Assembly (NCBI GenBank): GCA_964555935.1
Contig: CAZKUN010000007.1
Coordinates: 22,474-86,473, forward strand
Direction: 5' to 3'
Source of the DNA: an uncultured Armatimonadia bacterium
GTDB lineage: Bacteria > Armatimonadota > Zipacnadia > Zipacnadales > VGFC01
DNA: 64,000 bases
This document shows positions 56 to 34,435 of the stretch, one piece after another. The translations under genes and the position numbers were made by a program. The notes under the pieces are model-generated. The model was not told the DNA's origin, searched no databases, and saw only the letters and a list, made by a program, of their open reading frames with translations. Every line of letters begins with the position of its first letter. Within the stretch, counting starts at the first letter, position 1.

Positions 56-1639
56 CTACGCCGATCCGTTCGCGATCAATAGGCCGTAGTGATAGCTATC
101 TGTCAGCGCCTGCCAGGACGCCCAGATGATGTTTTCGTGCGCGCCAACGGTCATCCAGTGCTCGGTGCCGTTGGTCGACGTGATGGTGACTCTTACCTTC
201 GACGCTGTGCCCTGCTTGCCACTGACAACGCGGACCTTGAAGTCCGTCAGTCGCAGGTCCGCCAGCCCTGGGAATCGGTCGCCGATCGCCTGGCGCACGG
301 CGCTGTCGAGCGCGTGAACCGGGCCGTCGCCGTCCGCAACGCCGCTGACTTGATCGCCATTGATCTTAAGCTGGAGCGCCGCCTCGGAGAAGACCTCCTC
401 AGCGTCGCGCGCCGTCTCTTTCACTAGCACCGTCAGCCGGTTCACGTTGAACAGCTTCGACCGGCCCTCGACGACCTCGCGAGCGAGCAGCTCAAAACTC
501 GCCTCCGCCGTCTCAAACTCAAAGCCCTCGTGCTCGAGTTCCTTCACCCGCGCCAGGATCTCCCTGACCTCCGGCGATTTCTTCGTCATGTCGGGATAGA
601 GGTGCTTGATCTTCTCAACGATCGCCGCGGCTCCCGCCTGGTCTGACAGAATCAGCCGCCGCTCGCCGCCGACCGACGCCGGCGGGACATGCTCAAACGA
701 CTCCGCGATCTTGGAGATCCCGTCCTGGTGCATTCCTGCTTTGTGCGCGAAGGCCGATTCGCCCACATACGGCTGGCGCGCGTCGTGGTCGCGCATGGCG
801 ATCTCCGCCACCATCCGCGATGTGCTCGCCATCCGGTGCAGCCCATCCTCGGCCACCAGGCACTCGTGCCCCATCTTGAGCGCCAGGTTCGGCACCACGA
901 CGCACAGGTCCGCGTTGCCGCAACGCTCGCCGTAGCCGTTGATGGTGCCCTGGACCTGAACGCAGCCCGCTTGAACCGCCGCCAGACTGCTGGCGACCGC
1001 GCAGCCCGAATCGTTGTGCGTGTGGATGCCCATCGGCACGTCGACGGCCTCAAGCGACTGGTGGGTCGCCTCGACGATTTCGTCCAACATCCGGCCGCCG
1101 TTGGTGTCGCAGAGGATGATCCGTTCTGCTCCGCCCCGCTGCGCCGCGCGCAGCGTCTCAAGGGCATATTCCGCGTCGGATCGCCAGCCATCGAAGAAAT
1201 GCTCCGCGTCGTAGAAGACCTGCCGACCGCTAGCCTTAAGGAACGCGACCGAATCCTCGATCATCATCAGGTTCTCATCACGGCTGCATCGCAGAACGTG
1301 CTCGACATGCAGGTCCCACGACTTGCCGAAGATTGTGATGACGGGCGCGTCGCTGCTGATGAGGGCCGCTAGTTGCGGATCGTCGGCCGCCTCGACGCCC
1401 GCCCGGCGCGTGCTGCCAAACGCCGCGAGCTTCACGTGCTTCAGATCGAGTTCGCGCGCCACCGCGAAGAACTCCGTGTCTCGCGGGCTGCTCGGATTCG
1501 GCCAGCCGCCCTCGACGTAGTCGACGCCAAGTTCGTCCAGCAACTGGGTAATCCGGCGCTTGTCCTCAACGCTGAAACTGATGCCCTCGCCCTGGGCGCC
1601 GTCTCTTAGGGTCGTGTCGTAGACTTCGATTCTGCTCAT
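56..1639 (-). CDS. cimA: (R)-citramalate synthase / 2-isopropylmalate synthase family (long form with C-terminal LeuA-type regulatory domain)
   Basis: N-terminal IEVYDTTLRDGAQ HMGL-like motif, HTHND metal-binding motif, about 527 aa with C-terminal dimerisation/regulatory region. ORF track extends to 1687; MSRIEV start at 1639 matches family N-termini. Confidence 0.85.
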   Translation of the reverse strand: MSRIEVYDTTLRDGAQGEGISFSVEDKRRITQLLDELGVDYVEGGWPNPSSPRDTEFFAVARELDLKHVKLAAFGSTRRAGVEAADDPQLAALISSDAPVITIFGKSWDLHVEHVLRCSRDENLMMIEDSVAFLKASGRQVFYDAEHFFDGWRSDAEYALETLRAAQRGGAERIILCDTNGGRMLDEIVEATHQSLEAVDVPMGIHTHNDSGCAVASSLAAVQAGCVQVQGTINGYGERCGNADLCVVVPNLALKMGHECLVAEDGLHRMASTSRMVAEIAMRDHDARQPYVGESAFAHKAGMHQDGISKIAESFEHVPPASVGGERRLILSDQAGAAAIVEKIKHLYPDMTKKSPEVREILARVKELEHEGFEFETAEASFELLAREVVEGRSKLFNVNRLTVLVKETARDAEEVFSEAALQLKINGDQVSGVADGDGPVHALDSAVRQAIGDRFPGLADLRLTDFKVRVVSGKQGTASKVRVTITSTNGTEHWMTVGAHENIIWASWQALTDSYHYGLLIANGSA

Positions 1640-2103
1640 GGATTCGTCTCGCTTACGCGTCGGTGACGCCGGACCAACGGGCAACAAAAAAGCAGCTCAT
1701 CTCTTCTCAGAGACGAGCCGCTTGGTGCGAGGCCCGCGGTACCACTCTGTTTGGCCCGGCGCGTCTGGGCCCACTTGCTCCGCACGGGAGAGACAGCTCT
1801 CCGACACGGCCCTCGGGATAACGGTCGAGGATCCGGCGGAGCCTACTGAAGCCAGTAGCTGGTTCGGTCCGCGGCTCAGGGGTGATATCGGCGAGCGGCC
1901 TATCCTGCCGGGATCTCAGCGCCCCCGGCTCTCTGTAAGGGCCTTCCGCTCCGACACGCCCCATCTCAGCCAATGCGTTCGATTGTAGAGTTGCTTATAC
2001 CACAATACCCCTCGTCGGGCAAGGGGAGCCCCTCGCCGCGCGGAGGTCAATCCGGCTGCCGACGCGAAGCCCGACGCACAGCCGAAGCCCTCGACCGCGG
2101 TCC

Positions 2104-3525
2104 ATGGAGGCGTCCCTGATGCTACCTATCGTGACGATGCTTGTCTGCCTTCTGTTAGCCATCACTGCTGTGGCGGGCGCTGAGCCGCCTAGTGCCGTAG
2201 TGGAGGTCGAGGAAGATGTCTACACCTACGAGCCAGCCGACAACGGCGCCGGGCCGCTGTGGTGCCATGGCTCGACGTGCCTCGTGAGGATCGGCGACCG
2301 CGTGCTGGCTTCCGGTCTTGAGACCATCGAGGGCATGAAGCCGATGAACAACGTCCGCTGGACGCTCTGGACGCGCGATGCCGACCGGTGGCGTTTGGTC
2401 CGCACGGATGAGGCGAACCGCACGCGGGAGCCCGCGCCGATGGCGACCTATGAAGGCGGGCCCGCGTTCCTGTCGGTCAACCCGACCCTCGCCACGCCGG
2501 GCGAGTACGGCGGCCCGGCCGTTCCCCAGATTCTCCAACTCGACGTCGCCGACCCCGATGCCGAGGCGGTAACCCTCCTCCCGACATGGGATGGCGAGCC
2601 GGCGTTTACCGAGCACTCATACCGCAGCTTCGTGGCCGATGGACCGGGCCGCGAGTTGGCGCTCTTCCAGAACATCGGCTACAACCACGTGGAATGGGCG
2701 TTCCGCGATAGCGCCGGCGAGTGGTCCGCGCAGGGGAAGCTCGAGTGGCCATTCGGCGCGGAATACGACAAGCCCCAGCCGATCCGGGTCTGCTACCCGA
2801 CTGTCGCGATGAAGGACCGCGCCGTCCACTTCTGCGGTGTCAGCGACATCATCGAGCCGTATGACAGATGGCGCGAATACAAGGAAGAACTCACCGGGCG
2901 CAAGTGGGACTACGATTTCCGCCGGCTGTTCTACGTTCAATCGGCCGATATCTCCACCGGCGAATTCGGCGAGTGGGTTGAGGTCTCCAGCCGCGACAGC
3001 ACCTGCGGCTGGATCATGCCTTGCGACCTCTGGATCGCGCCGGATGGCGCGGCGCACATCATCTGGAACGAGCGAGCGCTTGATGAGCGGCTCAAGGAGG
3101 AGTTCTTCCCCGAGGAGAAGCAGCGCCACCAGCTCAACTACGCGGTGGTCCGCGAAGGCAAGGTAGTGATGAAGCGTACGCTGCAAGAGGGTGGCGACGG
3201 CTTGCCGCCGGAGACGCCGGGGCGCGGGCGATTCCACGTCACGCCCGACGGTCGCTTGCTCGTCTTCTACCACATGAGTGGATCGAGGCCCGACGGCGCC
3301 GGGTTCGCGGAGAATCGCTTGCTGGAGATCTACCCGGACGGCACGATCAGTTCGCCGACAGTGGTCGATCTAGGCAATCCGTTCACCTCCTTCTTCACCG
3401 CCACCCCACGGGCTGGTTCCGCGCCGTCGGACGTCCTGGATGTGTTTGGTGAGTGCGCCAACACCCAGCGGACGCTGCGCTACGCGCGGATCCGGATTGA
3501 GCCCGCGGGCACGGACGGCAGGTAG
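2104..3525 (+). CDS. hypothetical secreted protein (N-terminal signal peptide), possibly beta-propeller/glycosidase-like
   Basis: Hydrophobic N-terminus MLPIVTMLVCLLLAITAVAGA followed by AEPP. Aromatic-rich, non-repetitive composition; antisense ORFs are Arg/Ala-rich artefacts. Confidence 0.55.
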   Translation: MEASLMLPIVTMLVCLLLAITAVAGAEPPSAVVEVEEDVYTYEPADNGAGPLWCHGSTCLVRIGDRVLASGLETIEGMKPMNNVRWTLWTRDADRWRLVRTDEANRTREPAPMATYEGGPAFLSVNPTLATPGEYGGPAVPQILQLDVADPDAEAVTLLPTWDGEPAFTEHSYRSFVADGPGRELALFQNIGYNHVEWAFRDSAGEWSAQGKLEWPFGAEYDKPQPIRVCYPTVAMKDRAVHFCGVSDIIEPYDRWREYKEELTGRKWDYDFRRLFYVQSADISTGEFGEWVEVSSRDSTCGWIMPCDLWIAPDGAAHIIWNERALDERLKEEFFPEEKQRHQLNYAVVREGKVVMKRTLQEGGDGLPPETPGRGRFHVTPDGRLLVFYHMSGSRPDGAGFAENRLLEIYPDGTISSPTVVDLGNPFTSFFTATPRAGSAPSDVLDVFGECANTQRTLRYARIRIEPAGTDGR

Positions 3526-3591: not shown

Positions 3592-4461
3592 ATGGCCGTG
3601 ACGCAGGTCGATTCGGACTCTCTGCACGGGCTGGGTATGAGGTCCGCCGATGCGGAGGGCATCAGGAAGACACTGCTGCGCGGCCGCGGCGTCATCTTCG
3701 TATGTGGTCCCCGGGGAAGCGGTCGACACTCGGCGATGTACAGCATTCTCTGCTCGGTCAACCACGAATCCCAGAGCCTCATCCTTGGCGATACGTCCGT
3801 GCAAGACTGCCTCGATGGCGTCAGCCAGACGCAGCTTCAACCAGGCGAGCGCCTGGCCGACTGGATGCAAACGGCCATGCGCGCCGACGCCGACGTTGTG
3901 ATGGTCAAGCCGCTCGATACCATCGCCGACGCCATCAGCGTCGTTCGCGCCGCCGGTCGGCGCATCGTGCTGGTCGGCTCGGACGCCGAGAGCAGCCTCG
4001 GACCGCTATGCGAGATGATGGACATGGGCGCGAGCCCGGAGGTGATCTGCAACTCCGTTACCCTCGTCATCGCCACTCGCATCGTGCCGCGTCTCTGCCC
4101 GTACTGCCGCCGCGAGATCAAGCTCCCGACCGAGGTGCTGGCGCCGTTTGCGCCGCTCCAGCAGATCACGCACGACACGCGCGCGTTTGAGAGTCCCGGC
4201 TGTGATTCATGCGCGAAGACGGGTCGTCGCGGCTGGGTTGGCCTGTATGAGGTCCGGGAGGTCGGGCCGCAACTGCAGAGCATCCTGGGCGGGGATTACT
4301 CTCCCAAGTCTCTCACCGACGCGAGCATGTGCACGACCGCGATGTCGATCATGTCCCACGCGCTCGAGAAGTCCCAGGCCGGCCTGGTCGATCTCCGCGA
4401 TCTCCTCCCGCTCGTTAACAGCTGCCCCTTCGACAACGATATCCGCTTCTGGGAGAACTGA
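3592..4461 (+). CDS. GspE/PilB-family secretion ATPase C-terminal domain only, catalytically degenerate (pseudo-ATPase)
   Basis: Aligns by eye to the GspE ATPase core. Walker A is GPRGSGRHS instead of GPTGSGKTT. Walker B/Asp box is DADVVMVKPLD and the His box is replaced. The tetracysteine CPYC...CDSC Zn motif typical of GspE is retained. Confidence 0.6.
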   Translation: MAVTQVDSDSLHGLGMRSADAEGIRKTLLRGRGVIFVCGPRGSGRHSAMYSILCSVNHESQSLILGDTSVQDCLDGVSQTQLQPGERLADWMQTAMRADADVVMVKPLDTIADAISVVRAAGRRIVLVGSDAESSLGPLCEMMDMGASPEVICNSVTLVIATRIVPRLCPYCRREIKLPTEVLAPFAPLQQITHDTRAFESPGCDSCAKTGRRGWVGLYEVREVGPQLQSILGGDYSPKSLTDASMCTTAMSIMSHALEKSQAGLVDLRDLLPLVNSCPFDNDIRFWEN

Positions 4462-4482: not shown

Positions 4483-5859
4483 ATGGCCGATCCCCTCGCC
4501 GGCCGCGCGGATGAGTATCTACGTCTCCAGGAGGAGCTGTTCGTCCACGAGCCGGACGGGCTGCTCTACAACTGGATCAACTTGCGGACGCGAAAGCCCT
4601 TCCGCGCCGATGAGCTGCCTGACGACATCGTCTATCGCTGTCGTTCAGGCATGCCCGACGCGCTGACGTGGATCAACGGCGAGAACACGATCTGCAAGAC
4701 GGGCTTCTACCTCGCCGCGATGAGCATGGCGTATGAGCTGACGGGCGAGGAGCGCTACCTCGCGATCGCCCAGCGCCAGTTCGGGGCCATCTACACCATC
4801 TTCGAGTTGACCGCCGAGCTGCTGGGAGAGACAGGCTGGATTCCCAAGGCCTTCGGCTGGATCCCCCAATGCGCGTATTCCCACGACATGAATGGCGACC
4901 AGATGGATCCGGTCATGGCCGCGCTGCTTCAGTACTCGCGCGTTGCGCCGGAGCCGGATCGCGGCCGGGCGGCTGAGGTCGTTACGGCGGTCGTCGACAT
5001 GCTCATGCGCTGGGATTACTGCGTGACATTCCCGTTCACTGGGGGGATGTCGGGTGGACGAGGGAGCCTGTGGGACACCCCCAACATCAACGAGCAACCG
5101 GCGTTACTGACGTGGTTGCTGCTGGCTGAGGAGATCAGCGGCGAGTCGCGATATCGTGACGAATACGAGCGCGTGCTCGCGGCGGGGCACAAGGGCAATC
5201 TGCTGAACCTCACGCGCGTACAGATGTCGGCGCTAGCGCGCGAGGCTCGTCTTGAGAACGTAGCGGATCTGGCGCATTTCGCCGGGATTCCCGCCATGGA
5301 CGAGCCGGAGGTGGCCTCTCTCCCGCCTGGCGAGAAGCCCGAGGACTACGTGCTGGCGGGCGGCGGGTGGTACGTCAACGGTCACGCCTGCCGGTACTTG
5401 GCGGACCGAGACGAGCAGCGCGCCGATCACTGGCGCGGGCAGTTGCGCCGCTGGTGGGAGGACGAGATCTCCTGCACCTACGTCGCCGAACACCGTGCGG
5501 GCTACCTCTCCGTCTACCGGAATCCGACCACCGGAAGGCTGCACCACTTCACGCCCCGCATCATCGAGGGGATCCCGCCGATTCGCCGCAACTTCCTGAG
5601 CTGGTGCAAGGGCAACTGGCTGCATACCGGCGATTACTGGGCGGCGATGGCGCTCTACGCCTGGGAGCTGCTTGGCGAGGATAGCATGAAGCAAATGGTG
5701 CTGGGCCATCTCACCCAGGCGACGCCCGAGGACATGGTGTGGATCAAGGACCCGTCCGGCGAGCTGCCGCCGCAGAGCGCGTACCTCGCCGACTGCTTCT
5801 TCGGCCCAAGCGTGTGGCTGTACGTCTACTGGCGCGCGCGCAAGGTGGGGTTGCTCTGA
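4483..5859 (+). CDS. hypothetical cytoplasmic protein (Trp/Tyr-rich, possibly alpha/alpha-toroid glycosidase-like)
   Basis: 458-aa ORF with protein-like composition. Antisense ORF 5233..5880 is Arg-rich artefact. Consensus RBS-like spacing; no signal peptide. Confidence 0.5.
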   Translation: MADPLAGRADEYLRLQEELFVHEPDGLLYNWINLRTRKPFRADELPDDIVYRCRSGMPDALTWINGENTICKTGFYLAAMSMAYELTGEERYLAIAQRQFGAIYTIFELTAELLGETGWIPKAFGWIPQCAYSHDMNGDQMDPVMAALLQYSRVAPEPDRGRAAEVVTAVVDMLMRWDYCVTFPFTGGMSGGRGSLWDTPNINEQPALLTWLLLAEEISGESRYRDEYERVLAAGHKGNLLNLTRVQMSALAREARLENVADLAHFAGIPAMDEPEVASLPPGEKPEDYVLAGGGWYVNGHACRYLADRDEQRADHWRGQLRRWWEDEISCTYVAEHRAGYLSVYRNPTTGRLHHFTPRIIEGIPPIRRNFLSWCKGNWLHTGDYWAAMALYAWELLGEDSMKQMVLGHLTQATPEDMVWIKDPSGELPPQSAYLADCFFGPSVWLYVYWRARKVGLL

Positions 5860-5942: not shown

Positions 5943-6341
5943 TCAGTAGTTCGCGATGACGAAGAAGATGCAGTAGATGGTCGCGTAGCCGAACACCGTC
6001 ACCCACAGCGCCCGGCGCACGAGCCCGCAGCGTTCGAACTTCAGCTTGTTGAACAGCCAGATGGGCATGATGGTCAGACAGGCCTTGACCGCGACGAACG
6101 CCGTCACTCCGCCGGATTCCCAGACCCAACGCATTAACGGGTTGTACTCTTCCATCATCCCGTTCATCAGCATATACACGGAACTGATGGTGTCAGCCAC
6201 CGAGATCAGCACGAAGATGATCATCGGCAGAAGGAGCGTCCTGACTTCGGCGTCAGTTGGACCCTCACCGGTTGTAGGGTTATCGCTCACTCGATCAAGC
6301 ACCGCCGTCGTAATTCCGTCGCTGCAACTCATCGGCATCAA
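5943..6341 (-). CDS. small integral membrane protein (DUF5658-like)
   Basis: Three to four predicted TM helices (LLLPMIIFVLISVA, GGVTAFVAVKACLTIMPIWLF, ALWVTVFGYATIYCIFFVIANY). Confidence 0.5.
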   Translation of the reverse strand: MMPMSCSDGITTAVLDRVSDNPTTGEGPTDAEVRTLLLPMIIFVLISVADTISSVYMLMNGMMEEYNPLMRWVWESGGVTAFVAVKACLTIMPIWLFNKLKFERCGLVRRALWVTVFGYATIYCIFFVIANY

Positions 6342-7095: not shown

Positions 7096-8802
7096 ATGCT
7101 GCGCTGGGTCGACAGCGTAACAGGCCGAACGCTGACACGCTACTCGCCTCGCAGAAGGAGGCCCGCCCTGACCGCGGACGCCAGAATTGCCCCAACCAAG
7201 TGGCGCATCAGAGGCAGCCTCCCTAAGGTACTGCCGGCCGTGCGGCCGGTCTTCCTCGCAGGGCTCGTTCTCGTCGAGCAGAGCATGACGTCCACGGCGC
7301 TGGTGGTCGCCGCGCTGTACGTGGCGCTCGCGTGTGCCGCCGAGGGCTATCCCGCGAAGGGACGCGGCACCCGATCGGCCATCACCGGGGTGTTCATCCT
7401 CGCCGACATCGTCTGGCTCGTCATCGCCATCGACCACTTCGGATTCATCCCAGTGCTCCTGCCGTTTGGCTACGCCGTCGCAGCCGGCGTGGTTGCGGCG
7501 TGTGTGTCATGGACGCTCGGGATTGAGGTCCCGTTGCTGGCCACCATCATCTACTACTGCGCGGCGCTGGTTTACTGCAGCGTGATGAACCAGGTGCTTG
7601 CAGGAGAGGCGACGGTCTACCTGGCCGCCGCCCTGACGCTGGCCGGGGGCCTGCTGGGATACGTTGGCGGGGAGGTCTACCGCCTCGACCGCAGCCGTCG
7701 CGCCCACGATCGATTGAGATTGCTCAGTTCAGCCGACAGCGAAATGGCTGAGGCCGAAGGCGATGGCGAGCTGTTCGTGACGATCTCGACCGCAGCCGCG
7801 AACATCGCTGAGGCCAGCCGCGTGTGGCTCATGCGCGTCGACGATGAGACGGGCATGATGCATCTAGAGACGCGAGCACGCGACTCGCGCAAGCTCTACA
7901 GCGCCCGATCAGTATCGGCCACCGAGGGCATCGCGGGTGAAGCTGTCCTGAAGGGGCGGGGCCTCATCATCAACGATGCCGCACCCCGTTCGAGACGGCT
8001 GTCAGACTTCGAGCAGCAGTTCGCCGACCACCACGTTATTGCCGTGCCGATTCCCGATGTCGATGGCACGATCGGCGTGATTCTCGCGACCCGCAAGCGC
8101 TCGCAGCCGGGGTTCACAACCACTGAACTCGACCTGCTGACAATGCTCGCCAGCGCCGGGGGCGCCAAGCTTCAGACCGCGCGCCTGCTTCGCCGGCTGC
8201 AGGTCTCCGCGACGCGCGATTCGCTGACGGGGCTGTATAACCACGGCACGTTCCTCGAGGAACTCCAGCGTCAGATCGAGCAAACGGCGGCCCGGAACGA
8301 CCACTTCAGCCTCATCGTCTTGGACATGGACAAATTCAAGCAGATCAACGACACCGAGGGCCACATCGAGGGCGACCGGGTCCTCATGGCCCTGGCCCGG
8401 AAGCTCCAGGATCACTTCCGTCTGACCGACTTCATCGCGCGCTGTGGTGGCGATGAGTTTGCCGTCCTGCTTCCCGGGATGAAGCGTGAGGACGCCCTGC
8501 CGATCGCCGACCGCGCGGCTGCGGCGATGGAGCAGATCGGCAAGGACCTCCGACTTCGCACGCCGACAACGGCGAGTTGGGGGATCGCGTCTTTCCCCGA
8601 CGACGCGCGAACTGACAAGGAACTCTACCGGAAGGCTGACGCCCGGCTCTACATCGCCAAGCGCGCTGGCGGCGGACGCCTCGAGAGCGCGGGCGATGCC
8701 AGCTCTCCGCCCGACGAATCCCGCGATATGTCCCGCGCGCCCGTCAGCCTTGAGCCGACCGACTCGGCCGACGGCACGCCGGCCGTCCGCAGCGCCGGGT
8801 AG
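7096..8802 (+). CDS. membrane-bound diguanylate cyclase (TM region - GAF - GGDEF)
   Basis: C-terminal GGDEF domain with intact RLTD I-site five residues before RCGGDEF. GAF-like central region and multi-TM N-terminus. Alternative ATG start at 7285 (MTSTALVVAAL). Confidence 0.8.
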   Translation: MLRWVDSVTGRTLTRYSPRRRRPALTADARIAPTKWRIRGSLPKVLPAVRPVFLAGLVLVEQSMTSTALVVAALYVALACAAEGYPAKGRGTRSAITGVFILADIVWLVIAIDHFGFIPVLLPFGYAVAAGVVAACVSWTLGIEVPLLATIIYYCAALVYCSVMNQVLAGEATVYLAAALTLAGGLLGYVGGEVYRLDRSRRAHDRLRLLSSADSEMAEAEGDGELFVTISTAAANIAEASRVWLMRVDDETGMMHLETRARDSRKLYSARSVSATEGIAGEAVLKGRGLIINDAAPRSRRLSDFEQQFADHHVIAVPIPDVDGTIGVILATRKRSQPGFTTTELDLLTMLASAGGAKLQTARLLRRLQVSATRDSLTGLYNHGTFLEELQRQIEQTAARNDHFSLIVLDMDKFKQINDTEGHIEGDRVLMALARKLQDHFRLTDFIARCGGDEFAVLLPGMKREDALPIADRAAAAMEQIGKDLRLRTPTTASWGIASFPDDARTDKELYRKADARLYIAKRAGGGRLESAGDASSPPDESRDMSRAPVSLEPTDSADGTPAVRSAG

Positions 8803-12303: not shown

Positions 12304-14628
12304 GTGATCCACGTGGACGGCATCGACAGGACCTACCACTGCGACGTGCTCGTCATCGGTTCAGGCGTCTCCGGGTACTGCGCGGCGATCCAAGCCGGGC
12401 GCTGTGGCGCGAAGACGATCCTGATCGAGAAGGACGAGGTGCTGGGCGGCAACTCGGGCCCGAATCTCGGCGTCGGAATAACCGGCGCGGACCGCTACAA
12501 CGACTACGCGGGCGAGACGGGGATCATCCAGGAGCTGCAGGAGGAGGGCTGCTGGATCGACGCGATCACCCACGTCTCTCCCGGCTCGATGGGCTACACG
12601 ATCCACCGTCGGTTCGAGGCGGTCGTGCAAGAGCACCTAAAGCGCGCCGGCGTCACGATCCTCAAGCGCCACTGCGCCCGCCGACCGATCATGGATGGCG
12701 ACCGCATCGCGGCGGTCGTCTGCGAGGACAGCGCGGCGTTCCAGACAGCGCGCATCGATGTGGGCGGCTTCGTCATCGAGGGCTCGGGCGACGGCGAGAT
12801 CGCCGCGTTGGCGGGGGCGGAGTTCGACTTCGGCAGCGAATCGCGGGACGAGTTCGGCGAGCGTTCGGCTCCGGAGCAGCGGACGAACCAGGTCCAGGGC
12901 ACGAGCCTCGTCGCCATCGCCCACCCCACGGGCCGCGACATCCGCTTCGTGCCGCCCGCCGGGACGCCCGAACACGTGCCGCGCGTCTGGCATGGGCGCA
13001 TGTCGAGTTGGCTGAGTCACCATGACGGATGGTTCGCGCCGGGCAAGGATCTGTTCTTCCTGTACGTTACCGAGACCGGCGGGCACATGGACACCGTGCG
13101 CGACGACGGCGACATCTACGAGATGCTCCTGAGGCAGCTCTGGGCCGAGTGGGACCACATCAAGAACGGTCCCCACGCCGAGGAGGCGCGCGAGTGGGAT
13201 CTGCTCTGGGTCAGCCCCAAAGCCGGCAAGCGCGAGAGCCGCCGGTTCATGGGCGACTACGTGCTGACGCAGACGGATGTCGAAGACGGCGTCCGGTTCG
13301 CCGATGACATCACCTACGGGGGCCACGATCTCGACGATCATATGCCGCTCGGCGAGGGCAGCAATATCTTCGCCCATAGCATCCCGCCGCTCTTTGGCGT
13401 GCCCTACCGCTGCTGCTATTCGCGTAACCTCAGCAACCTGTTCCTGGCGGGACGGCTGATCAGCGCCACTCACATCGCTCACTCCAGTACGCGCATCATG
13501 CGGACCGGCGCCGCGATCGGCCAGGCGGTCGGGCTCGCAGCCTCGCTTTGCCTGGAGCACCACTGCACTCCGCGCGCGCTCGACGAAGAGCACATCGACG
13601 AGTTGCAGCAATCACTCATCGCCCGCGACGCGACGATCCTCGGCGTGAGGCGTGAGGACAGCACGGATCTCGCGCGTTCCGCGACGGCTTCGGCGTCGAG
13701 CGAGGTCCGCTTCAACGACCAGGAGCCTGGCACGCTCGTGCCGCTGATCGCACGGGCGGGTGTGGTGCTGTGGGACTGGCCGGAGAATCTCAACACGGTC
13801 AGCCTGTTCCTCCGCAACGATTCCGACCAAGCTCAAGAGCTGCGGCTGAGGATCCTGAGAGCGCGTCGCGAGGGCAAATGGATCGTGCCGGATGACTGGC
13901 ACCAGTTCCATTGGAACGACCTGCGCGACGAGGCCTTCGCGGAGATTCACTCGGCGACTGCGGAGTTGCCCGCCGGACACCACGGCTGGTTCGAGATCGA
14001 TCTCGCCAGTGTCGAGCTGGGCGAGAAAGACGCGGCGAGTGATGACGACCGGGTGCTGATCGCGCTGGACCAGAACGCCAACGTGTCCTGGGCTGTGGCA
14101 ACGCGCCGGAGCGAGATCGCGACAATGGTCGAGCACAGCCATCACCGCCCGCAGTGGGCATCGATGAACGCGATGGCGACGATGCGCCTCGACCCCGCGC
14201 CGTCGGTCGGCGAGGCGACGAATGCCATCAACGGCCACCACCGCCGCACCAGTCGAGCGCCGCTGAACATGTGGATGTCTGATCCCGAGGCCGGGCTGCC
14301 GCAAGAACTCATCCTGGAGTGGCCTGAGGCCCAGAGCTTCGATCAGGTCACGGTTACCTTCGACAACCTCGCGCGGCTCACGAGCGAGAACCCGTGGCAC
14401 AGTGGGAGCCGCGTCGTGCCGTTCCTGGCGAAGGCGTATGACATCAGTGTCTGGGCGGATGGCGAGTGGGCGGAGGTCGTGAGTGAGGACGACAACTTCC
14501 ACCGTCGGCGTACCCATCGGGTTGGTCCGATCCACGCGAGCAAGCTCCGGCTGCGCGTCCTGTCGACGCATGGCGAAGGGTTTGGCGCGAGGGTCTACGA
14601 ACTGAGCGTGCATGATGCGCAGAAGTGA
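12304..14628 (+). CDS. FAD-dependent oxidoreductase (FAD_oxidored family) with C-terminal discoidin-like domain
   Basis: Rossmann dinucleotide motif DVLVIGSGVSGYCAAIQAGRCGAKTILIEKDEVLGGN. C-terminal about 150 aa discoidin-like. ORF-track N-terminal extension overlaps the upstream convergent gene, so GTG 12304 (or 12313) is used as start. Confidence 0.75.
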   Translation: MIHVDGIDRTYHCDVLVIGSGVSGYCAAIQAGRCGAKTILIEKDEVLGGNSGPNLGVGITGADRYNDYAGETGIIQELQEEGCWIDAITHVSPGSMGYTIHRRFEAVVQEHLKRAGVTILKRHCARRPIMDGDRIAAVVCEDSAAFQTARIDVGGFVIEGSGDGEIAALAGAEFDFGSESRDEFGERSAPEQRTNQVQGTSLVAIAHPTGRDIRFVPPAGTPEHVPRVWHGRMSSWLSHHDGWFAPGKDLFFLYVTETGGHMDTVRDDGDIYEMLLRQLWAEWDHIKNGPHAEEAREWDLLWVSPKAGKRESRRFMGDYVLTQTDVEDGVRFADDITYGGHDLDDHMPLGEGSNIFAHSIPPLFGVPYRCCYSRNLSNLFLAGRLISATHIAHSSTRIMRTGAAIGQAVGLAASLCLEHHCTPRALDEEHIDELQQSLIARDATILGVRREDSTDLARSATASASSEVRFNDQEPGTLVPLIARAGVVLWDWPENLNTVSLFLRNDSDQAQELRLRILRARREGKWIVPDDWHQFHWNDLRDEAFAEIHSATAELPAGHHGWFEIDLASVELGEKDAASDDDRVLIALDQNANVSWAVATRRSEIATMVEHSHHRPQWASMNAMATMRLDPAPSVGEATNAINGHHRRTSRAPLNMWMSDPEAGLPQELILEWPEAQSFDQVTVTFDNLARLTSENPWHSGSRVVPFLAKAYDISVWADGEWAEVVSEDDNFHRRRTHRVGPIHASKLRLRVLSTHGEGFGARVYELSVHDAQK

Positions 14629-14642
14629 TTGAGAGGCAAGCA

Positions 14643-15743
14643 ATGACATCACGCGAACGCATGATCACCGCCATGTTGAACGAGCAGCCGGACATGGTGC
14701 CCGTCGCGCCCGATACCTCGAACATGATCCCCTCCCGGCTGACTGGGAAGCGGTTCTGGGACGTGTATCTCTACAAGGATCCGCCGCTGTGGCAGGCCTA
14801 TATCCACACCTGCAAGCACTTCGGCTTCGACGGCTGGCTACCCAGCATCGGCGCGCAGACGCGCATGCAAAACGTCGCAATCGTTAAGCGTACCGATGAA
14901 CGGATCGTCGTTCAGCCCTATTCCGAGGCGAACGGCAAGCGCGCCTGGGTCCCGCTGGTTCACGTTTACTACGTCGCCGACCCGCCGACCCACAACGTCC
15001 CTTGTGAGAGGATCGGCCTGCCGCGCGTGCCGGAGACTTGGGAGGACTTCGTCGACGAGTCGGAGGAGTTGACGGAGGAGGAAGCCCTGCGCGCCGCTAG
15101 AGAGTTGATGGGGGACGCGGGCGTACTTGGGATGAATGTCGGCATCCCCGGCCTGCACGGGGAGGCGGGGATCTACGAGTATTACGATGACTACACGACC
15201 GTGAAGGACCGCGCGCTGGCGCACGAGCAGACCGTTGAGGAACGCGCGCGCCAGGTCTGTGAGATGGGGCCTGACTTCGTCTTCATCGGTTACTCGGGGT
15301 GTCTCACGTTCCAGACGCCGGAGATGTTCCGAGACCTCGGCCTTCCGAGCCTTCAGATCATCACGCGCGTCGCGAAGGAGTATGGCCTCCCCAGCCAGAT
15401 TCACTCCTGCGGGCCCGAGGCGGCGCTGGTGGAGATCGCCGCGAAGGAATCGGACCTCACGAACATCAACCCGCTTGAGCGCCCGCCAATGGGCGACTGC
15501 AAGCTCGATGAGATCAAACGCGACTTCGGCGCGGACATCAGCCTCATGGGCAACCTCCACACGACGGAGGTCATGCTCCACGGGACGCCCGATCTCGTGC
15601 GCGAAGAGAGCAAGTGGTGTCTCGATGTCGCGGCTGAGGGTGGCGGGTTCATCCTCTCGACCGGCGACCAGTGCGGGCGCGATACTCCGGACGAGAACAT
15701 CCATGCCATGATCGAGGTGGCGAGAGAGTGTGGGAAGTACTGA
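14643..15743 (+). CDS. uroporphyrinogen decarboxylase (URO-D)-like family protein (MtaA/CmuA-like methyltransferase fold)
   Basis: URO-D-like length and conserved pattern. RBS gagagg 5-6 nt before ATG 14643. ORF-track GTG 14625 overlaps the upstream stop. Confidence 0.7.
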   Translation: MTSRERMITAMLNEQPDMVPVAPDTSNMIPSRLTGKRFWDVYLYKDPPLWQAYIHTCKHFGFDGWLPSIGAQTRMQNVAIVKRTDERIVVQPYSEANGKRAWVPLVHVYYVADPPTHNVPCERIGLPRVPETWEDFVDESEELTEEEALRAARELMGDAGVLGMNVGIPGLHGEAGIYEYYDDYTTVKDRALAHEQTVEERARQVCEMGPDFVFIGYSGCLTFQTPEMFRDLGLPSLQIITRVAKEYGLPSQIHSCGPEAALVEIAAKESDLTNINPLERPPMGDCKLDEIKRDFGADISLMGNLHTTEVMLHGTPDLVREESKWCLDVAAEGGGFILSTGDQCGRDTPDENIHAMIEVARECGKY

Positions 15744-25672: not shown

Positions 25673-26905
25673 ATGAAACACCTGCGGCGCGCGTTCCTCG
25701 TGGCGGCGGCGATCTTTGCGGGCACGATGCTCGCGGCCGACCCGATCGAGATGGCTGGCGGCCGACGCCAGCGCATGAATGGCTATGTCGTTCTTCACCT
25801 CGAAGGCACCCCAGAGCAGATGGGCCGACAGCACGGCCTCTTGATGAAGTCCGAGGTCCAGCGGATGATTCGCGACCTGCTGCTAAAGGGCGAGTGCGAT
25901 ACCGAGGCCGAGCATCGCCGGCTAGTCAAGGGCGCGATGGTGATGGAGAAGTACCTCGGCCGCGAGTACCGTCAGGAGTTGCGGGCGCTGGCCGACGCGG
26001 CCGACGTCGAGTACGAGGACCTCGTTCTCGCTCAGCTCTTCGGCGACGTTCAACGCGCGAGCAAGAAGAGCTACTCCACGTCCTCCTCCAGCGACGATGA
26101 CTTCAGCGGCAGCGACCCCTGGCAGTGCACGTCCTACGCCGTCTTTGGGCCCGCCACAGCGACCGGCGAGTGCATCGTCGGTCGCAATATGGATTTCTGG
26201 GACCAGGGAGTCAGCGAGTGGGGCGCCGTGCTCATCCACTTCAAGCCTGACAATGGTATCCCGTTCGTCACCACCTCGTGGGCCGGCATCGTCAACGGCT
26301 GGACCGCGATGAACTTGGAGGGAGTCGTCAGCGCGAACAACAGCTCCTTCGACGGCAAGTCTGACTCCCTCGAGGGCATCAGCACCTGCTTCATGGTCCG
26401 CAAGATTGCCCAGTTCGCCCATGATGTCGAGGAGGGCGTGCAGATCATCAAAGACACCCCTCGCTCCTGCGGGACGAACATCATCGTCGCCGGTGGGAAT
26501 CCCGCCAACGCGGCGATCGTCGAGTTCGACCACGAGGAAGTCGCCGTCCGCTGGGCTGAGAATGGCGCTATTTGCGCGGCCAACGATTTCGAGAAGCTAT
26601 ACCAACGCGAGTCGGCAACCGGCTACACGTCGTACTACTCGCGCGCGGGTCGGCTCCGCGAACTGATCGAGGAGAACTTCGGCGAGATCACCCGTGGCGA
26701 CAACTTCGCTGCCGCCGAGGGCGTGCCGCTGCGCTACATCAACCTGCACTCGGCGCTGCTGTTTCCGAAGGACCTCCGCTTCAACGTCTCGATGTCGCTC
26801 AAGCCCGCGGCCGACCATTGGTATCGGCCCTTCCGCCTCACGCCCAATGGCGTCGAGCCCGTCCCCCTCGATGAGGGATGGAGGGAGACGCTGCCGACTC
26901 CGTGA
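25673..26905 (+). CDS. secreted C45-family Ntn-hydrolase (acyl-CoA:6-APA acyltransferase-like)
   Basis: Signal peptide. Internal nucleophile context WQCTSYAVFGP...GRNMDFWD typical of autoproteolytic C45/AAT-like enzymes. Confidence 0.65.
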   Translation: MKHLRRAFLVAAAIFAGTMLAADPIEMAGGRRQRMNGYVVLHLEGTPEQMGRQHGLLMKSEVQRMIRDLLLKGECDTEAEHRRLVKGAMVMEKYLGREYRQELRALADAADVEYEDLVLAQLFGDVQRASKKSYSTSSSSDDDFSGSDPWQCTSYAVFGPATATGECIVGRNMDFWDQGVSEWGAVLIHFKPDNGIPFVTTSWAGIVNGWTAMNLEGVVSANNSSFDGKSDSLEGISTCFMVRKIAQFAHDVEEGVQIIKDTPRSCGTNIIVAGGNPANAAIVEFDHEEVAVRWAENGAICAANDFEKLYQRESATGYTSYYSRAGRLRELIEENFGEITRGDNFAAAEGVPLRYINLHSALLFPKDLRFNVSMSLKPAADHWYRPFRLTPNGVEPVPLDEGWRETLPTP

Positions 26906-26916
26906 ATCTGGGGTCC

Positions 26917-27855
26917 ATGACACCTCGCGAGCGCGTTCTGACAGCGTTGGCTCACGAAGAGCCCGACCGCGTCCCCCACAACCTCCGGCCCTCCCATGAG
27001 TTGCTGACGATGCTCTCTGAGCGCGTGAGTGAGGTCGATTTCTCCGAGCACTTCGCTCACGACGTCCGCTTCGTACACATCCCCCTCGCTCCCAAGCCCG
27101 ACGACGTGCCCGACATCGACTGGGCGCCCGAGCCGTCGGCCGAGGCCATCGCCGAGGTCGCCAAGGTCGTCGATGCGTTCCACGAGCGGGGCTTGGCGGT
27201 CTGCGGTGGCTACGCGTGCGGCGTCTACGAGCAGGCGAAGCACTGGCTCGGCGACGAGGCCACGATGATGGGGCCACACGACGACCCCGCTAAGTTCGGC
27301 GAGTTCCTCGACCGAATCACCGAGTGGAAGGCCGCCGTCTATGGCGGCTACGCGGCGGCGGGCACGGACATCGTCTGGATGGGCGATGACCTCGGCTCGC
27401 AGCGCTCGCTCATCATGAGTCCCGAGCATTACCGCGAGTGGTACAAGCCTCGCCACGAGAGAATTGCGGACTACATCCGCTCCATCAGTCCCGACGCGAA
27501 GGTCGCCTTCCACTGCTGCGGCCACGTGACGCCGCTGGTCCGCGACCTCATCGAGGTCGGCATCGACGTGCTTGAAGCCGTCCAGGCCGAGACGATGGAT
27601 ATTGCCCACCTCAAGCGCGAGTTCGGTGCGGACATCTCGTTCTGGGGCGGCGTCGGTGCGCAAAGCGTCCTCGCCCGCACCACGCCCGAGCAAGTCACCG
27701 AGGGCGTTCGCGAGACGCTCCGCATCATGGCGCCCGGCGGTGGCTACATCGCGGCGCCGTGTCACACGCTGACCGACGAGGTGCCGTGGGAGAGCGTCAT
27801 CGCCTTCCACCAGACCATCACCGACCACGGCACGTACCCAAATCCGGGAGGATAG
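26917..27855 (+). CDS. URO-D-like family protein (paralog 2)
   Basis: MTPRERVLTALAHEEPDRVPH N-terminus and overall URO-D-like architecture. Start at ATG 26917. Confidence 0.7.
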   Translation: MTPRERVLTALAHEEPDRVPHNLRPSHELLTMLSERVSEVDFSEHFAHDVRFVHIPLAPKPDDVPDIDWAPEPSAEAIAEVAKVVDAFHERGLAVCGGYACGVYEQAKHWLGDEATMMGPHDDPAKFGEFLDRITEWKAAVYGGYAAAGTDIVWMGDDLGSQRSLIMSPEHYREWYKPRHERIADYIRSISPDAKVAFHCCGHVTPLVRDLIEVGIDVLEAVQAETMDIAHLKREFGADISFWGGVGAQSVLARTTPEQVTEGVRETLRIMAPGGGYIAAPCHTLTDEVPWESVIAFHQTITDHGTYPNPGG

Positions 27856-27858
27856 CCC

Positions 27859-29007
27859 ATGCCCGAAACACTCACCCACCGCGACCGCCTGCTCCGCTCC
27901 GCAAGGGGCGAATCGGTTGACCGCGTGCCCATCGATCCGCCGATCGCCTTCGACCGCATCGCGTGGGACGAGAAGGGCTCAGACGCGGCGCCGCATGGAG
28001 ATCCGCTGTGGGTTGAGGTCGCGGAGCGGTGCGCCGAGCACTGCGATGTCTTCGTCGGAATGCCCGCGTGCGGCGCGCTGTTTGATCGGCGCTTCCTCCT
28101 CACGCCGGGCAAGTTCATTGAGCGCCTGCCGGTGGAGAAAGAGGGCGAGTGGACCGTCATCAGGCACGTCGTCCACACGCCCAAGGGCGACCTCACCACC
28201 ACCGACAAGATCCAGGCCGGCGTCTCAACGGGTTGGTACACGGAGCCGCTGGTGAAGACGCCCGATGACGCCGAGGCGCTTCTCAGCGTTCCCTACGAGT
28301 TCACTCCCGTCGACCTCTCGCCGGCCAGGAGTTACGTCGAGAAGGTCGGCGACCGAAGCGTCGCCCACATTGGTGTCTCGACACCCCTTGTCAGCGTCTC
28401 GCGGCTGATGCACTTCGACGAACTGCTGCTGTGGTGCCATACCGAGCGTGAACTCGTGCATCGACTGATCGACACGATGACCGAGCGGATCGAACTGGGG
28501 CTGAGGTACGTGCTCGACGCGGGGCTGGGCGAGATGATGTGGCTCGGCGGATCAGAGCAGGCCACGCCGCCGATGATGGGGCCGGAGATGTACGACGAGT
28601 TCGTGACCCAGTACGACAGCCGGATCATCGACCTCATGCACAATTACGATGGCTTGGTCCATGTCCACTGTCACGGGAAGATCTCGGGGATTCTCGACCG
28701 TCTGCTCGACATGGACGTCGACATGACCGATCCTGTCGAGCCGCCACCTGATGGCGACATCACCATGGCCGAGGCCAAGAAGCGTTGCGCCGGCCGCATG
28801 ACTCTGATGGGCAACATCGAGTTCCGCGAGCTTGAGTTCTCCTCACCCAAGCGCATCCGCGAACTTATCAGGACCGCCATCCTCGACGGCGGCGCGGAGC
28901 GGACGTACCTCTACCCATCCGCCACGCCGATCCAGGCCCTCACGCCACAATACCGCGACAATGCCATTGCCTACATCGAAGCCGGCCTCGAGTTTGGCGC
29001 CTCGTAG
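27859..29007 (+). CDS. URO-D-like family protein (paralog 3)
   Basis: LTHRDRLLRSARGESVDRVPIDPP N-terminus typical of the URO-D/MtaA-like family. 3-nt gap after previous gene. Confidence 0.7.
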   Translation: MPETLTHRDRLLRSARGESVDRVPIDPPIAFDRIAWDEKGSDAAPHGDPLWVEVAERCAEHCDVFVGMPACGALFDRRFLLTPGKFIERLPVEKEGEWTVIRHVVHTPKGDLTTTDKIQAGVSTGWYTEPLVKTPDDAEALLSVPYEFTPVDLSPARSYVEKVGDRSVAHIGVSTPLVSVSRLMHFDELLLWCHTERELVHRLIDTMTERIELGLRYVLDAGLGEMMWLGGSEQATPPMMGPEMYDEFVTQYDSRIIDLMHNYDGLVHVHCHGKISGILDRLLDMDVDMTDPVEPPPDGDITMAEAKKRCAGRMTLMGNIEFRELEFSSPKRIRELIRTAILDGGAERTYLYPSATPIQALTPQYRDNAIAYIEAGLEFGAS

Positions 29008-32827: not shown

Positions 32828-34327
32828 TTACGCTCCCGGCGGGCGCGAGTACTCCCACCCCGCATGCAGCCACGAACTCAGCTCCGTGCACAACTCCTGG
32901 TTCTCCGCGCGGTCTGCGATGTTCACGTTCTCGCCCGGATCGTCTTGGTGATCGTATAGCTCCCGCGCCAGCACCCTCTGCTCGTCCTCGATCCACTCGG
33001 TGTACCGATACCGGTCCGTCCGCATCGAGTACCCCATCTTGTTTCGGCCGCGCGGGTATTGGCTGAACGCCGCGCGCTTCCACTCGCGGGTCGGATCGTC
33101 CATCAGCGGCGCGAGGCTCGTCCCCTCAAGGTGATCCGGCAGCGCCAGCCCGGCCAGCTCCGTGACCGTCGGGTAGATGTCTACGAACTCACACAGCGCG
33201 TCCGTCGGCTGGCCCTTCGCCTTCTGGTCGGGCGAGGCGATGAGTAGCGGTGAGTGAGTGCTTGTCTCGTAGTTGCAGTGCTTGCACCAGAGCCCGTGTT
33301 CGCCGAGTTGCCAGCCGTGGTCGCCCCAGAATGCGATGACCGTGTTCTCCCGCAGACCGAGCGCATCCAGTTCATCCATCAGCCGTCCGAGTTGCGCGTC
33401 GATGAAGCTCACGCAGGCGTAGTAGCCGTGGATCAGCTCGCGCGCCTGCTCATCGCTAAGCGGGCCCTTCTTCGGGATCTGATGGTACTGGCGCAGCTCG
33501 CCCCAGGTGTGCAGCGCGATATCGGGCGCTCCCTCGGGGCGGAACGGGTTGTCGGCGAGGTTGATCTCATCGCGCGGGTAGAGGTCCCAGTAGCGCTTCG
33601 GAGCCGCGAAGGCGAGGTGAGGTTTCAGGAAGCCGACGCCCAGGAAGAAACTCTCTTCAGCCTCCTTGTGCGCGCGGAGCGCCTCGATCGCCTTGTCTGC
33701 GATCTGGCCATCGGCGTAGGCGTTGTCGGGCAGGTCGCCGGCTTCGGTGGCGGGGCCGCGCACGCGCTTGCGCTTCTCCGGATCCGTTTCGGCCTTGCGA
33801 AGTCGGTCGAGTAGCGCCAGGTTCTCCTCGGTCACGACTCCGGGGAACTGGTTCTGCGCGACCCATGGTTCAGACGACCATCCAGGGGGATCCTCGCGCT
33901 TGCCATGGTGGTAGATCTTCCCCAGCGACGTGCTGATGTACCCGTTCTCGCGGAAGAGCTGTGGCAGCGTCATGACGTCGGGCATCGTCGTGCGCAGCGG
34001 CGTTTGGAGGTCATGCACGCCCGTCGTGTTCGGTCGGCACCCGCTCAGCACGCTCGCCCGCGATGGCGCGCAGACGGCTTGCTGACAGTACGTCCGCCGA
34101 AACAGCGTCCCTTCGGCGGCCAGCCGGTCGATGTTCGGCGAGACGATCTGGCTGTGCCCGTGACATTTGAACTGCGGCCTGAGATCATCGACCGCAATGA
34201 AGAGCACGTTGTGGCCCGGCCGCTCCCGGCGTCGCGCTTTCAGTCCGCCGGCCATCGCCAGCGCCCCAACGCCGATTCCCGTCACCCCCATCGCTATCGC
34301 CTCCCGTCGAGTGACCCTCGTTGCCAT
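32828..34327 (-). CDS. arylsulfatase family (Cys-type, Tat signal)
   Basis: Formylglycine motif CAPSRASVLSG. Tat-type N-terminus RREAIAMGVTGIGVGALA. Start at MATRV (34327). Confidence 0.85.
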   Translation of the reverse strand: MATRVTRREAIAMGVTGIGVGALAMAGGLKARRRERPGHNVLFIAVDDLRPQFKCHGHSQIVSPNIDRLAAEGTLFRRTYCQQAVCAPSRASVLSGCRPNTTGVHDLQTPLRTTMPDVMTLPQLFRENGYISTSLGKIYHHGKREDPPGWSSEPWVAQNQFPGVVTEENLALLDRLRKAETDPEKRKRVRGPATEAGDLPDNAYADGQIADKAIEALRAHKEAEESFFLGVGFLKPHLAFAAPKRYWDLYPRDEINLADNPFRPEGAPDIALHTWGELRQYHQIPKKGPLSDEQARELIHGYYACVSFIDAQLGRLMDELDALGLRENTVIAFWGDHGWQLGEHGLWCKHCNYETSTHSPLLIASPDQKAKGQPTDALCEFVDIYPTVTELAGLALPDHLEGTSLAPLMDDPTREWKRAAFSQYPRGRNKMGYSMRTDRYRYTEWIEDEQRVLARELYDHQDDPGENVNIADRAENQELCTELSSWLHAGWEYSRPPGA

Positions 34328-34435
34328 GCTCCGTCCCTCCGTGCGTTCTGGCCTTATCTTATTGCGCGGGAGGAAGCGCCGCACCTTCGGCCGAAGTCGG
34401 TGCCATCCGGCGACGCCGCACGAGGGAGCCTCCCC

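Follow-up and report, generated by a model that had tools for sequence, protein, structure and literature searches.

The subject of this report is a gene at 3592..4461 (plus strand) in a 64,000-nucleotide stretch of DNA (the window; contig CAZKUN010000007.1, positions 22,474 to 86,473) from an uncultured Armatimonadia bacterium. It encodes a degenerate, stand-alone relative of the C-terminal domain (CTD) of GspE and PilB, the ATPases of type II secretion systems (T2SS) and type IV pili (T4P). The open reading frame (ORF) runs for 289 codons with zero internal stops, and the G + C content at its third codon positions (GC3) is 0.83, a usual value for coding DNA in this genome. The NCBI record for the product (HJN18232.1) reads 'ATPase, T2SS/T4P/T4SS family [Armatimonadota bacterium]', a name that also covers type IV secretion systems (T4SS). 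The gene and the motifs within it are as follows.

3592..4461, plus strand: coding sequence of the stand-alone degenerate GspE/PilB C-terminal domain; ATG start, 289 amino acids and a stop codon
3706..3732, plus strand: remodelled P-loop, residues 39-47, GPRGSGRHS (Walker A of EpsE: GPTGSGKST)
3787..3804, plus strand: Asp-box remnant, residues 66-71, GDTSVQ (canonical VEDPIE)
3886..3921, plus strand: Walker B remnant, residues 99-110, DADVVMVKPLDT (EpsE/canonical DPDVVMVGEIRD)
3955..3993, plus strand: His-box remnant, residues 122-134, GRRIVLVGSDAES (canonical TGHLVxSTLHTNxA)
4096..4212, plus strand: retained tetracysteine (CM) zinc-binding subdomain, C169-x2-C172 ... C204-x2-C207
4423..4458, plus strand: clade-specific C-terminal tail, CP-x6-7-FWEN, past the end of canonical GspE; low model confidence

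Several comparisons delimit the domain. The match to Pfam T2SSE (PF00437, E=7.5e-30) is restricted to positions 120-368 of the 370 in the profile. The PilB and GspE equivalogs of NCBIfam align to the protein over their C-terminal ~260 positions only (the last 264 in the case of PilB), with scores of 125, 120, and 116 bits that miss the respective cut-offs of 676, 617, and 630. The closest relative of solved structure is EpsE of Vibrio cholerae, on which residues 10-272 align with residues 145-407 of the crystallised construct (E=2e-29, 26% identity across 263 residues). The ORF thus begins at the linker between the second N-terminal domain (N2, or N2D) and the CTD, and an N2 domain is lacking. 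An unrelated gene for a signal-peptide protein ends 66 bp upstream, and no remnant of an N-domain was found upstream, either in the window or in orthologous loci. The initial annotation of this DNA had described an intact reading frame that holds the C-terminal ATPase domain without N1 or N2, and both statements agree with these results.

Catalytic motifs, zinc motif and predicted fold

The family to which the protein belongs was aligned to 103 diverse canonical GspE/PilB proteins (mutual identity <50%) over their C-terminal domains, and the columns conserved at ≥75% were compared. The P-loop keeps its glycine frame, with the family consensus GPPGSGRR, while its lysine has become arginine and the Ser/Thr that acts as Mg ligand has become His or Arg. 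The Walker A pattern GxxxxGK[ST] is consequently absent: arginine occupies the lysine position in 10 of 11 family members, compared with lysine in 95% of the canonical domains. The Asp-box glutamates are not maintained, the first position being E/H/D and the second Q/R across the family; the equivalent of the Mg2+ ligand E357 of PilB, as placed by motif spacing, is Gln in the window protein and Gln/Arg in the family. In Walker B, VVMVGE is changed to VVMVKP (GE to KP), which puts Pro107 in the place of the catalytic glutamate (Pro in 10 of 11 members), and the acidic residues of pore loop 1 are gone from this remnant. The His box of EpsE, TGHLVMSTLHTN, aligns with GRRIVLVGSDAE, so that both histidines are replaced; TGHLV..TLH has become GRRIVLVGSD, no family member has the His-box histidines, and the equivalent of T411 of PilB is also replaced. 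A family-specific motif, AESSLxPL, follows directly after this remnant. The substitutions at conserved columns are given below (canonical residue, then family).

Walker A to Asp box: K45 to R (10/11); T48 to A; D68 to R/H/T; P69 to S/A; E71 to Q/R
Walker B and beyond: G106-E107 to x-Pro (10/11); R109 to E; T113 to D
His box: T122-G123-H124 to G/S-R-M/T; T129 to G; H131 to V/I
Remaining positions: R141 to E/D; Q162 to T/S; R166 to P; R215 to V/S/W

The roles of individual residues have been described for PilB of Geobacter by McCallum et al. (PMC5424180). Their equivalents in the window protein, listed next, were placed by motif spacing in gap-free conserved blocks and not by structural superposition; the Walker A lysine (R45) and the catalytic glutamate (P107) can be read directly from the EpsE alignment.

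PilB T327, Walker A region, inter-chain backbone contact: R41
PilB E357, Asp-box Mg2+ ligand: Q71
PilB D398/E400, pore loop 1: T110/A112
PilB T411, inter-chain contact: G122
PilB H413/H420, His box: R124/D131
PilB R455, inter-chain contact: P166

The arginine fingers of PilB, R271 and R286, are located in the N2 domain (PMC5424180) and are lost along with it. As judged from these alignments, the residues for Mg-ATP hydrolysis, for the action of the pore loop on the platform protein, and for coupling between subunits are replaced. The motif inspection, together with the profile alignment against T2SSE, bears out most of what the initial annotation had reported, namely the change of the Walker A lysine to arginine, the replacement of the His-box histidine (in fact of both histidines) and the retention of a CPYC...CDSC zinc site, and it turned up no intact Walker A lysine in the window protein. 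A further claim, that the acidic residues of Walker B and the Asp box are lost, stands for the Asp-box Glu equivalents and the catalytic glutamate and fails for D99 and D101 (the DxD ahead of the Walker B strand) and for the Asp-box residue D67, all of which are kept.

These retained elements could be taken to indicate an active NTPase with unconventional chemistry, in which Arg45 would act for the lysine and D67 or D/E109 for the lost acidic residues: the P-loop has kept its glycine frame, the Walker B strand still has D99/D101, and an acidic residue recurs two positions past the lost catalytic glutamate (PLE/PLD). Such an enzyme is very improbable given the joint loss of both Walker A residues (Lys and Ser/Thr), the Mg ligand of the Asp box, the catalytic glutamate, both histidines, and the entire N2 domain with its arginine fingers, since a mutation in one such motif is enough to abolish the activity of PilT-like ATPases (PMC5424180).

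The zinc motif is kept. CPDC...CPKC of EpsE is matched by CPYC...CDSC, every member has the cysteines C169, C172, C204, and C207, and the spacing CxxC-x(21-40)-CxxC, which is specific to GspE/PilB and absent from PilT, is found in the sequence. Pro166 stands before this subdomain in place of the inter-chain arginine. Like the four cysteines, other positions that define the fold are kept in the family (the P-loop glycines G39, G42, and G44, then Y50, Q79, D101, R163, G211, G214, E220, K260, and G264). Three additional cysteines are highly conserved: C153, C38 immediately ahead of the P-loop, and, in the core clade only, C278 of the C-terminal tail. A strict second metal site made of these three is unlikely, because C38 is Ser in one orthologous locus (L022) and in a sister protein (P0033, see below) and C278 is clade-specific. 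The tail itself is conserved in the core clade and absent from the member found in a Zipacnadales metagenome-assembled genome (MAG) and from P0028-like members.

Structure prediction with AlphaFold2 gave a mean predicted local distance difference test score (pLDDT) of 73.5 when family sequences only were supplied; residues 59-78 and 105-123, where the Asp box and Walker B used to be, scored lowest. When the alignment held 63 sequences, canonical relatives among them, the pLDDT was 91.7 and the predicted template modelling score (pTM) 0.90; this model has the canonical order of secondary structure and low confidence in the last ~10 residues only. A Foldseek search of the PDB with the predicted structure placed GspE (4pht, 4ksr, 1p9w) and PilB/PilF (5zfr, 5tsh, 5oiu) at the top, with template modelling (TM) scores of 0.79-0.81 and a root-mean-square deviation of ~3 Å over ~267 columns, well ahead of BfpD, DotB, and PilT. 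By homology of sequence and of modelled fold, the protein is a member of the GspE/PilB clade of the T2SSE superfamily.

Family conservation and selection

A search of 5.8 billion proteins returned one cluster at 99% identity and 12 others at 49-61%, the latter with lengths of 275-291 aa (290-291 in ten cases); further members were contributed by loci L022, L024-26, L031, and L032. There are at least 16 orthologous lineages, with proteins of 290-292 aa and 32-83% identity, and all are intact. The 13 protein clusters agree in start (MPVT...), stop, and length, and the degenerate motifs recur in nearly all members as GPPGSGRR, DVLMVxPLE, and GAxAESSLxPL. All seven copies available as DNA are intact at 870-876 nt with GC3 values of 0.82-0.87. 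The ratio of nonsynonymous to synonymous substitution rates (dN/dS, Nei-Gojobori) among these seven copies is 0.14-0.16 in the three closest pairs (78-83% amino acid identity), and 0.24-0.56 in distant pairs, where synonymous sites are largely saturated.

The restriction to a C-terminal domain and the degenerate catalytic motifs would be expected of a decaying pseudogene, or of a mis-called fragment from a longer GspE gene. The comparison of orthologs refutes this reading: every copy is intact with the same start and length, the closest pairs evolve under purifying selection, the upstream DNA holds a different gene or a divergent promoter region with no trace of an N-domain, and GC3 is that of a coding sequence. 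The initial annotation had preferred a non-catalytic paralog to a decaying pseudogene and had proposed dN/dS across orthologs as a check; the values above, the recurrent substitutions, and the lack of frameshifts and stops in the orthologs all agree with that choice.

Conservation within the protein is uneven. Among 16 members (minimum identity 32%), the most conserved part is residues 31-56, which carries the remodelled P-loop and has a mean entropy of 0.71 bits compared with 1.26 bits for the whole protein, whereas constraint is looser in the former Asp-box region (1.45 bits). The position of the P-loop segment at the head of this ranking suggests that the P-loop has been re-purposed and not abandoned, and it is probably still a binding site. 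On the evidence of sequence, the gene is a selectively maintained pseudo-ATPase, which consists of the RecA-like C-terminal domain of GspE/PilB on its own, complete with the zinc (CM) subdomain. It has the properties of a pseudoenzyme, being a homolog of an enzyme family that lacks the essential catalytic residues and is under purifying selection.

The family is rare and, where its carriers are named, belongs to Armatimonadota (Ca. Zipacnadia); a MAG assigned to Ca. Zipacnadales (class Zipacnadia of Armatimonadota) carries one of the orthologs. When 185,579 GTDB species, each represented by one genome, were scanned with sequence patterns, a single further genome with a family member was found, a count that is a lower bound as exact pattern matches were required. 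An exhaustive hidden Markov model (HMM) search of 1.84 billion representatives gave four single-domain proteins of ~290 aa above the canonical background.

P0009 and P0012: core family members
P0028: GPPRSGRQ; GE kept; His box lost; Cys motif kept
P0033: GPPHSGKT with Lys intact; SE kept; His box lost

Gene neighbourhood and possible roles

The genes around the pseudo-ATPase gene in the window are listed here; the one that recurs at orthologous loci encodes a small membrane protein with a DUF5658 domain.

2104..3525, plus strand: upstream gene, product with a signal peptide
4483..5859, plus strand: downstream gene, 458-aa product
5943..6341, minus strand: DUF5658 small membrane protein with three transmembrane (TM) segments, ~129 aa; likely start ATG at 6332

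DUF5658 proteins at these loci have the conserved motifs ADTVSS, MEEYNPLMRWVW, and KxRRxxxVRR and three predicted TM segments. The stop codon of the pseudo-ATPase is followed after 3-180 bp by a DUF5658 gene in convergent orientation in about 10 of the 13 lineages for which downstream sequence exists; in the window the two are within 1.5 kb of each other. The lineages with the pair span 32-60% identity and present it in three unrelated flanking contexts.

Glycosyltransferase context (L001, L006, L012, L022, L024-26, L031): a family 4 glycosyltransferase (GT4) gene and a gene for a 664-aa 9-TM protein upstream (divergent), signal-peptide proteins downstream
P0028/P0205 context (L020, L032): Lon-like and M16 peptidase genes flank the pair
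Window context: the pair is split by one inserted gene for a 458-aa protein (4483..5859), and every other neighbour differs

The two genes that flank the pseudo-ATPase in the window form an operon-like array with it (gaps of 66 and 21 bp). Their products have no match in Pfam, NCBIfam, PADLOC, or PHROG, and no homologs of them were found in orthologous loci. No terminator-like site was found between 2104 and 5859, which fits, without proving, co-transcription of the pseudo-ATPase with both flanking genes in this genome; no Rfam match was found around the gene. An origin in defence or phage was rejected, as no PADLOC defence-system model matches the pseudo-ATPase or its neighbours and PHROGs yielded generic GspE-like families only. 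Two diguanylate cyclase genes were seen in the window, one for a membrane GAF-GGDEF protein (7096..8802, plus strand) ~750 bp from DUF5658 and one for a REC-GGDEF protein (43199..44278, plus strand); the neighbouring GGDEF gene is not conserved in orthologous loci.

At most orthologous loci, the gene upstream of the pseudo-ATPase is the divergently transcribed GT4 glycosyltransferase. It overlaps the gene for the 664-aa protein (for example, L022 6534..9796; also L001, L006, L009, and L031), and this pair, which is absent from the window, is often followed by a gene for an FGGY sugar kinase. The best NCBIfam match of the glycosyltransferase is to that of the PEP-CTERM/XrtA system, well below the cut-off, and the 664-aa protein has a soluble N-terminal part of ~300 aa, 9 predicted TM segments, and no family match.

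Machinery for secretion or pili is missing from all of these surroundings. No gene for GspF/PilC, GspL/PilM, a secretin, or a prepilin peptidase stands next to the pseudo-ATPase in the window or in ~13 orthologous contexts, and Pfam scans of 46 ORFs across the window revealed no T2SS/T4P partner apart from an orphan GspE-type protein with an HTH_17 domain (HTH-GspE; 50989..52485, minus strand, 498 aa). This protein is encoded 46 kb from the pseudo-ATPase, is 24% identical to it, and has no pilus or secretion genes nearby. It carries a canonical Walker A (GPTGSGKTT) and His box, a Walker B of IGDVPD, in which the usual catalytic Glu is Asp, and an Asp box of VESTV (ED to ES).

The initial annotation had suggested that the pseudo-ATPase could regulate, or be an inactive protomer of, a hexameric ATPase such as this HTH-GspE. 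On this reading, the lone CTD would accept the N2 domain of a full-length GspE/PilB to form one 'packing unit', and so terminate, poison, or tune the assembly of the hexamer. The canonical CTD fold is retained in the model, and as the main inter-chain contact in PilB/GspE is that of the N2D of one chain with the CTD of the next (PMC5424180), a free CTD could in principle be bound. Variants of EpsE are negatively dominant, for which the authors suggest competition for T2S partners or mixed oligomers (PMC5061722). Two relatives are also relevant here. P0042 (739 aa) has a degenerate CTD-only module (GPPRSGRS; Walker B ...LLVDPIED) fused before an N2D-CTD module that is without a His box, and the sister protein P0033, with its Walker A lysine intact, is encoded next to a prepilin-like DUF1559 gene (with G|MTVIELLVV). 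Against these points, the genes for GspE/PilB, PilC/GspF, PilM/GspL, and secretin are never adjacent, the HTH-GspE is distant in both position and sequence, the inter-chain positions have changed (those that correspond to T411 and to R455, the latter now Pro166, and the His box), and the pseudo-ATPase lacks N2 and hence the main inter-chain contact. Prepilin-like DUF1559 genes are very abundant in Armatimonadota, so that the adjacency to P0033 may be due to chance. The N-terminal domain of P0042 has no relatives, a search with it having returned nothing but ordinary GspE (33-37% identity); it is as near to canonical GspE as to the pseudo-ATPase family and probably arose in an independent event. 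P0042 and the window protein share 24% identity. As a Rosetta-stone fusion, P0042 is weak evidence at best. The proposal of a protomer or cap is thus not supported by these comparisons, and we consider it unlikely.

The pseudo-ATPase falls short in every functional feature of a secretion ATPase that was compared: the N2 domain, the four catalytic motifs (Walker A, Asp box, catalytic Glu, and His box), the score thresholds of the equivalogs, and the presence of machinery genes nearby. An annotation as GspE or PilB would be wrong for it.

We lean towards a role for the protein as a non-hydrolysing, zinc-stabilised cytoplasmic adaptor or sensor with a ligand-binding P-loop, for which DUF5658 would be the most likely partner. 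Such a protein would neither hydrolyse ATP nor form a canonical motor ring, and would not be a motor. The P-loop, GPPxSGR[RHQS], would bind something, the likeliest candidate being a phosphate-bearing ligand (a nucleotide or second messenger) without Mg, and the tetracysteine site would keep the domain folded; in EpsE, zinc is required for stability and the CM domain lies on the outside of the hexamer (PMC5061722). The 3-TM DUF5658 protein, as the best candidate partner, could tether the pseudo-ATPase at the membrane, where it may modulate an envelope process. Neighbours of an envelope type are present in most lineages, including the GT4 glycosyltransferase, the 9-TM 664-aa protein, and exported (signal-peptide) proteins. 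A PilB of Myxococcus xanthus that is deficient in hydrolysis still signals exopolysaccharide production (PMC5544727).

A number of points weigh against the adaptor or sensor. Adjacency to DUF5658 has exceptions: the downstream gene encodes an ABC transporter at L013 and a 221-aa protein at L009/L011, P0033 has its prepilin-like DUF1559 neighbour, and at L029 a DUF5658 gene of the same subfamily has no pseudo-ATPase within 8 kb. The link consists of gene order among fairly related genomes only (their CimA proteins are 72% identical), and the two genes are convergent and hence not co-transcribed, which makes the adjacency suggestive of a functional link and not proof of it. Little of DUF5658 would face the cytoplasm, namely a short basic loop and a ~35-aa tail. 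Confidence in the structural model is partly owed to the canonical rows in the alignment, and the loss of activity is deduced from sequence alone. Walker A variants with Lys changed to Arg can still bind nucleotide, so that a weak or unusual activity is conceivable. The ligand and the regulated process are guesses.

Some of these points would suit a protein with a structural role, either zinc/cysteine-based or independent of any ligand, in which the P-loop would serve folding only and the order of DUF5658 would be inherited synteny. The invariance of the four zinc cysteines, the high conservation of C38, C153, and C278, the need for zinc in the stability of EpsE (PMC5061722), the exceptions to adjacency, and the relatedness of the genomes are in its favour. 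We regard it as quite unlikely: the pair persists in three flanking contexts down to 32-35% identity, the P-loop segment exceeds the rest of the fold in conservation by more than folding alone usually demands, and the change of C38 to Ser in L022 and P0033 means that it is not a strict extra metal site.

A more specific version of the adaptor or sensor can be put forward tentatively, as a possible though doubtful scheme. In this scheme, the pseudo-GspE and DUF5658 would form a two-component module not recognised before, in which a motor domain has been turned into an Mg-independent ligand sensor; GPPxSGRR would bind a nucleotide or second messenger, for example cyclic di-GMP (c-di-GMP) or (p)ppGpp, and the membrane-anchored complex would control the assembly of envelope polysaccharide or of a pseudopilus in Armatimonadota. 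The adjacency of the two genes does recur in independent contexts, with the exceptions noted above.

Comparison with known systems places the protein nearest to the CTD of GspE/EpsE (V. cholerae 1P9R/4KSR and V. vulnificus 4PHT), with which it shares the RecA-like core and the tetracysteine CM zinc subdomain and which is the best match in both sequence and structure. It differs in having no N1E/N2E, in the replacement of the Walker A lysine, Asp box, catalytic Glu, and His box, and in having no gspL, gspF, or pseudopilin operon around it. Fold and zinc motif are likewise shared with PilB (Geobacter 5TSG/5TSH/5ZFR and Thermus PilF), whereas the equivalents of T327, E357, D398/E400, T411, H413, H420, and R455, the Walker A lysine, and the catalytic glutamate are substituted. 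A looser analogy is one of function only. The archaeal ArlH/FlaH and the TadZ/CpaE proteins of Tad pili have a degenerate or atypical P-loop, bind nucleotide without being the motor themselves, and organise or regulate a PilT/VirB11-like ATPase; they are members of other P-loop families (KaiC/RecA-like and ParA/MinD-like), are encoded in machinery operons, and are not derived from the motor ATPase. PilB of M. xanthus shows that a protein of the GspE/PilB type can have a regulatory output for which ATP hydrolysis is dispensable (Black et al. 2017, PMC5544727), and most family members adjoin a locus with a glycosyltransferase and a membrane protein. Unlike the constitutively 'dead' and truncated pseudo-ATPase, the M. 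xanthus protein has its full length, works as a motor, and binds c-di-GMP through its N-terminal domain.

A full-text literature search found no description of a natural pseudo-ATPase in this superfamily, no work on DUF5658, and nothing on Zipacnadales that is relevant to the pseudo-ATPase. The secretion and pilus ATPases GspE, PilB, and PilT are regarded as obligate hexameric motors, and no natural derivative of them that is conserved, catalytically dead, and N-terminally truncated was found described. The gene is a well-supported case of conversion from motor to non-motor, as a lineage-restricted pseudoenzyme with a plausible membrane partner. If the P-loop binds a ligand or partner, it would show a motor domain turned regulator and offer a first functional handle on DUF5658, as well as a 'CTD-only' protein from nature with which the packing of N2D on CTD could be dissected. 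The practical impact is small at present, and the family is restricted to a few lineages of uncultured Armatimonadota.

Distant relatives and other features of the window

The top matches of the HMM search, of ~1000 aa, were rejected as close relatives: they are canonical GspE proteins in tandem, in which the scores of two domains add up, and they are no closer to the family than ordinary GspE is. Such tandem double GspE/PilB proteins, with two N2D-CTD modules per chain, occur in metagenomes (P0027, 1047 aa, and other proteins of ~1000 aa in the set P0029-P0043, five of which were read in detail). The first module of P0027 has GPTGSGTT, with the Walker A lysine changed to Thr, and the protein may carry one inactive module. 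Short canonical T2SSE proteins (273-318 aa) were also rejected as proof that CTD-only GspE is common. Most of those read start inside N2 or at the N2D-CTD linker, or without Met, and all their catalytic motifs are intact; they look like fragments or mis-called starts.

Some features elsewhere in the window were recorded. A hairpin with a 15-bp stem and a T-run (1690..1723, minus strand) lies ~40-50 nt upstream of the likely start, on the same strand, of a CimA/LeuA-like gene (56..1639, citramalate/isopropylmalate synthase-like), and may be a leader or attenuator; it has no Rfam match. Three paralogs that resemble uroporphyrinogen decarboxylase (URO-D) or a methyltransferase of that type are encoded on the plus strand at 14625..15743, 26878..27855, and 27859..29007, the latter two being adjacent. 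A HerA/DUF87-like P-loop protein, matched in the Walker A region only, is encoded beside a trypsin-like peptidase with a YbjN-like C-terminus (38439..40085 and 40119..41756, both minus strand). Finally, two divergent sulfatase genes occupy 33148..35461; their maximal ORFs (32828..34810, minus strand, and 33905..35890, plus strand) overlap at the 5' ends, so that the real starts must lie further in.

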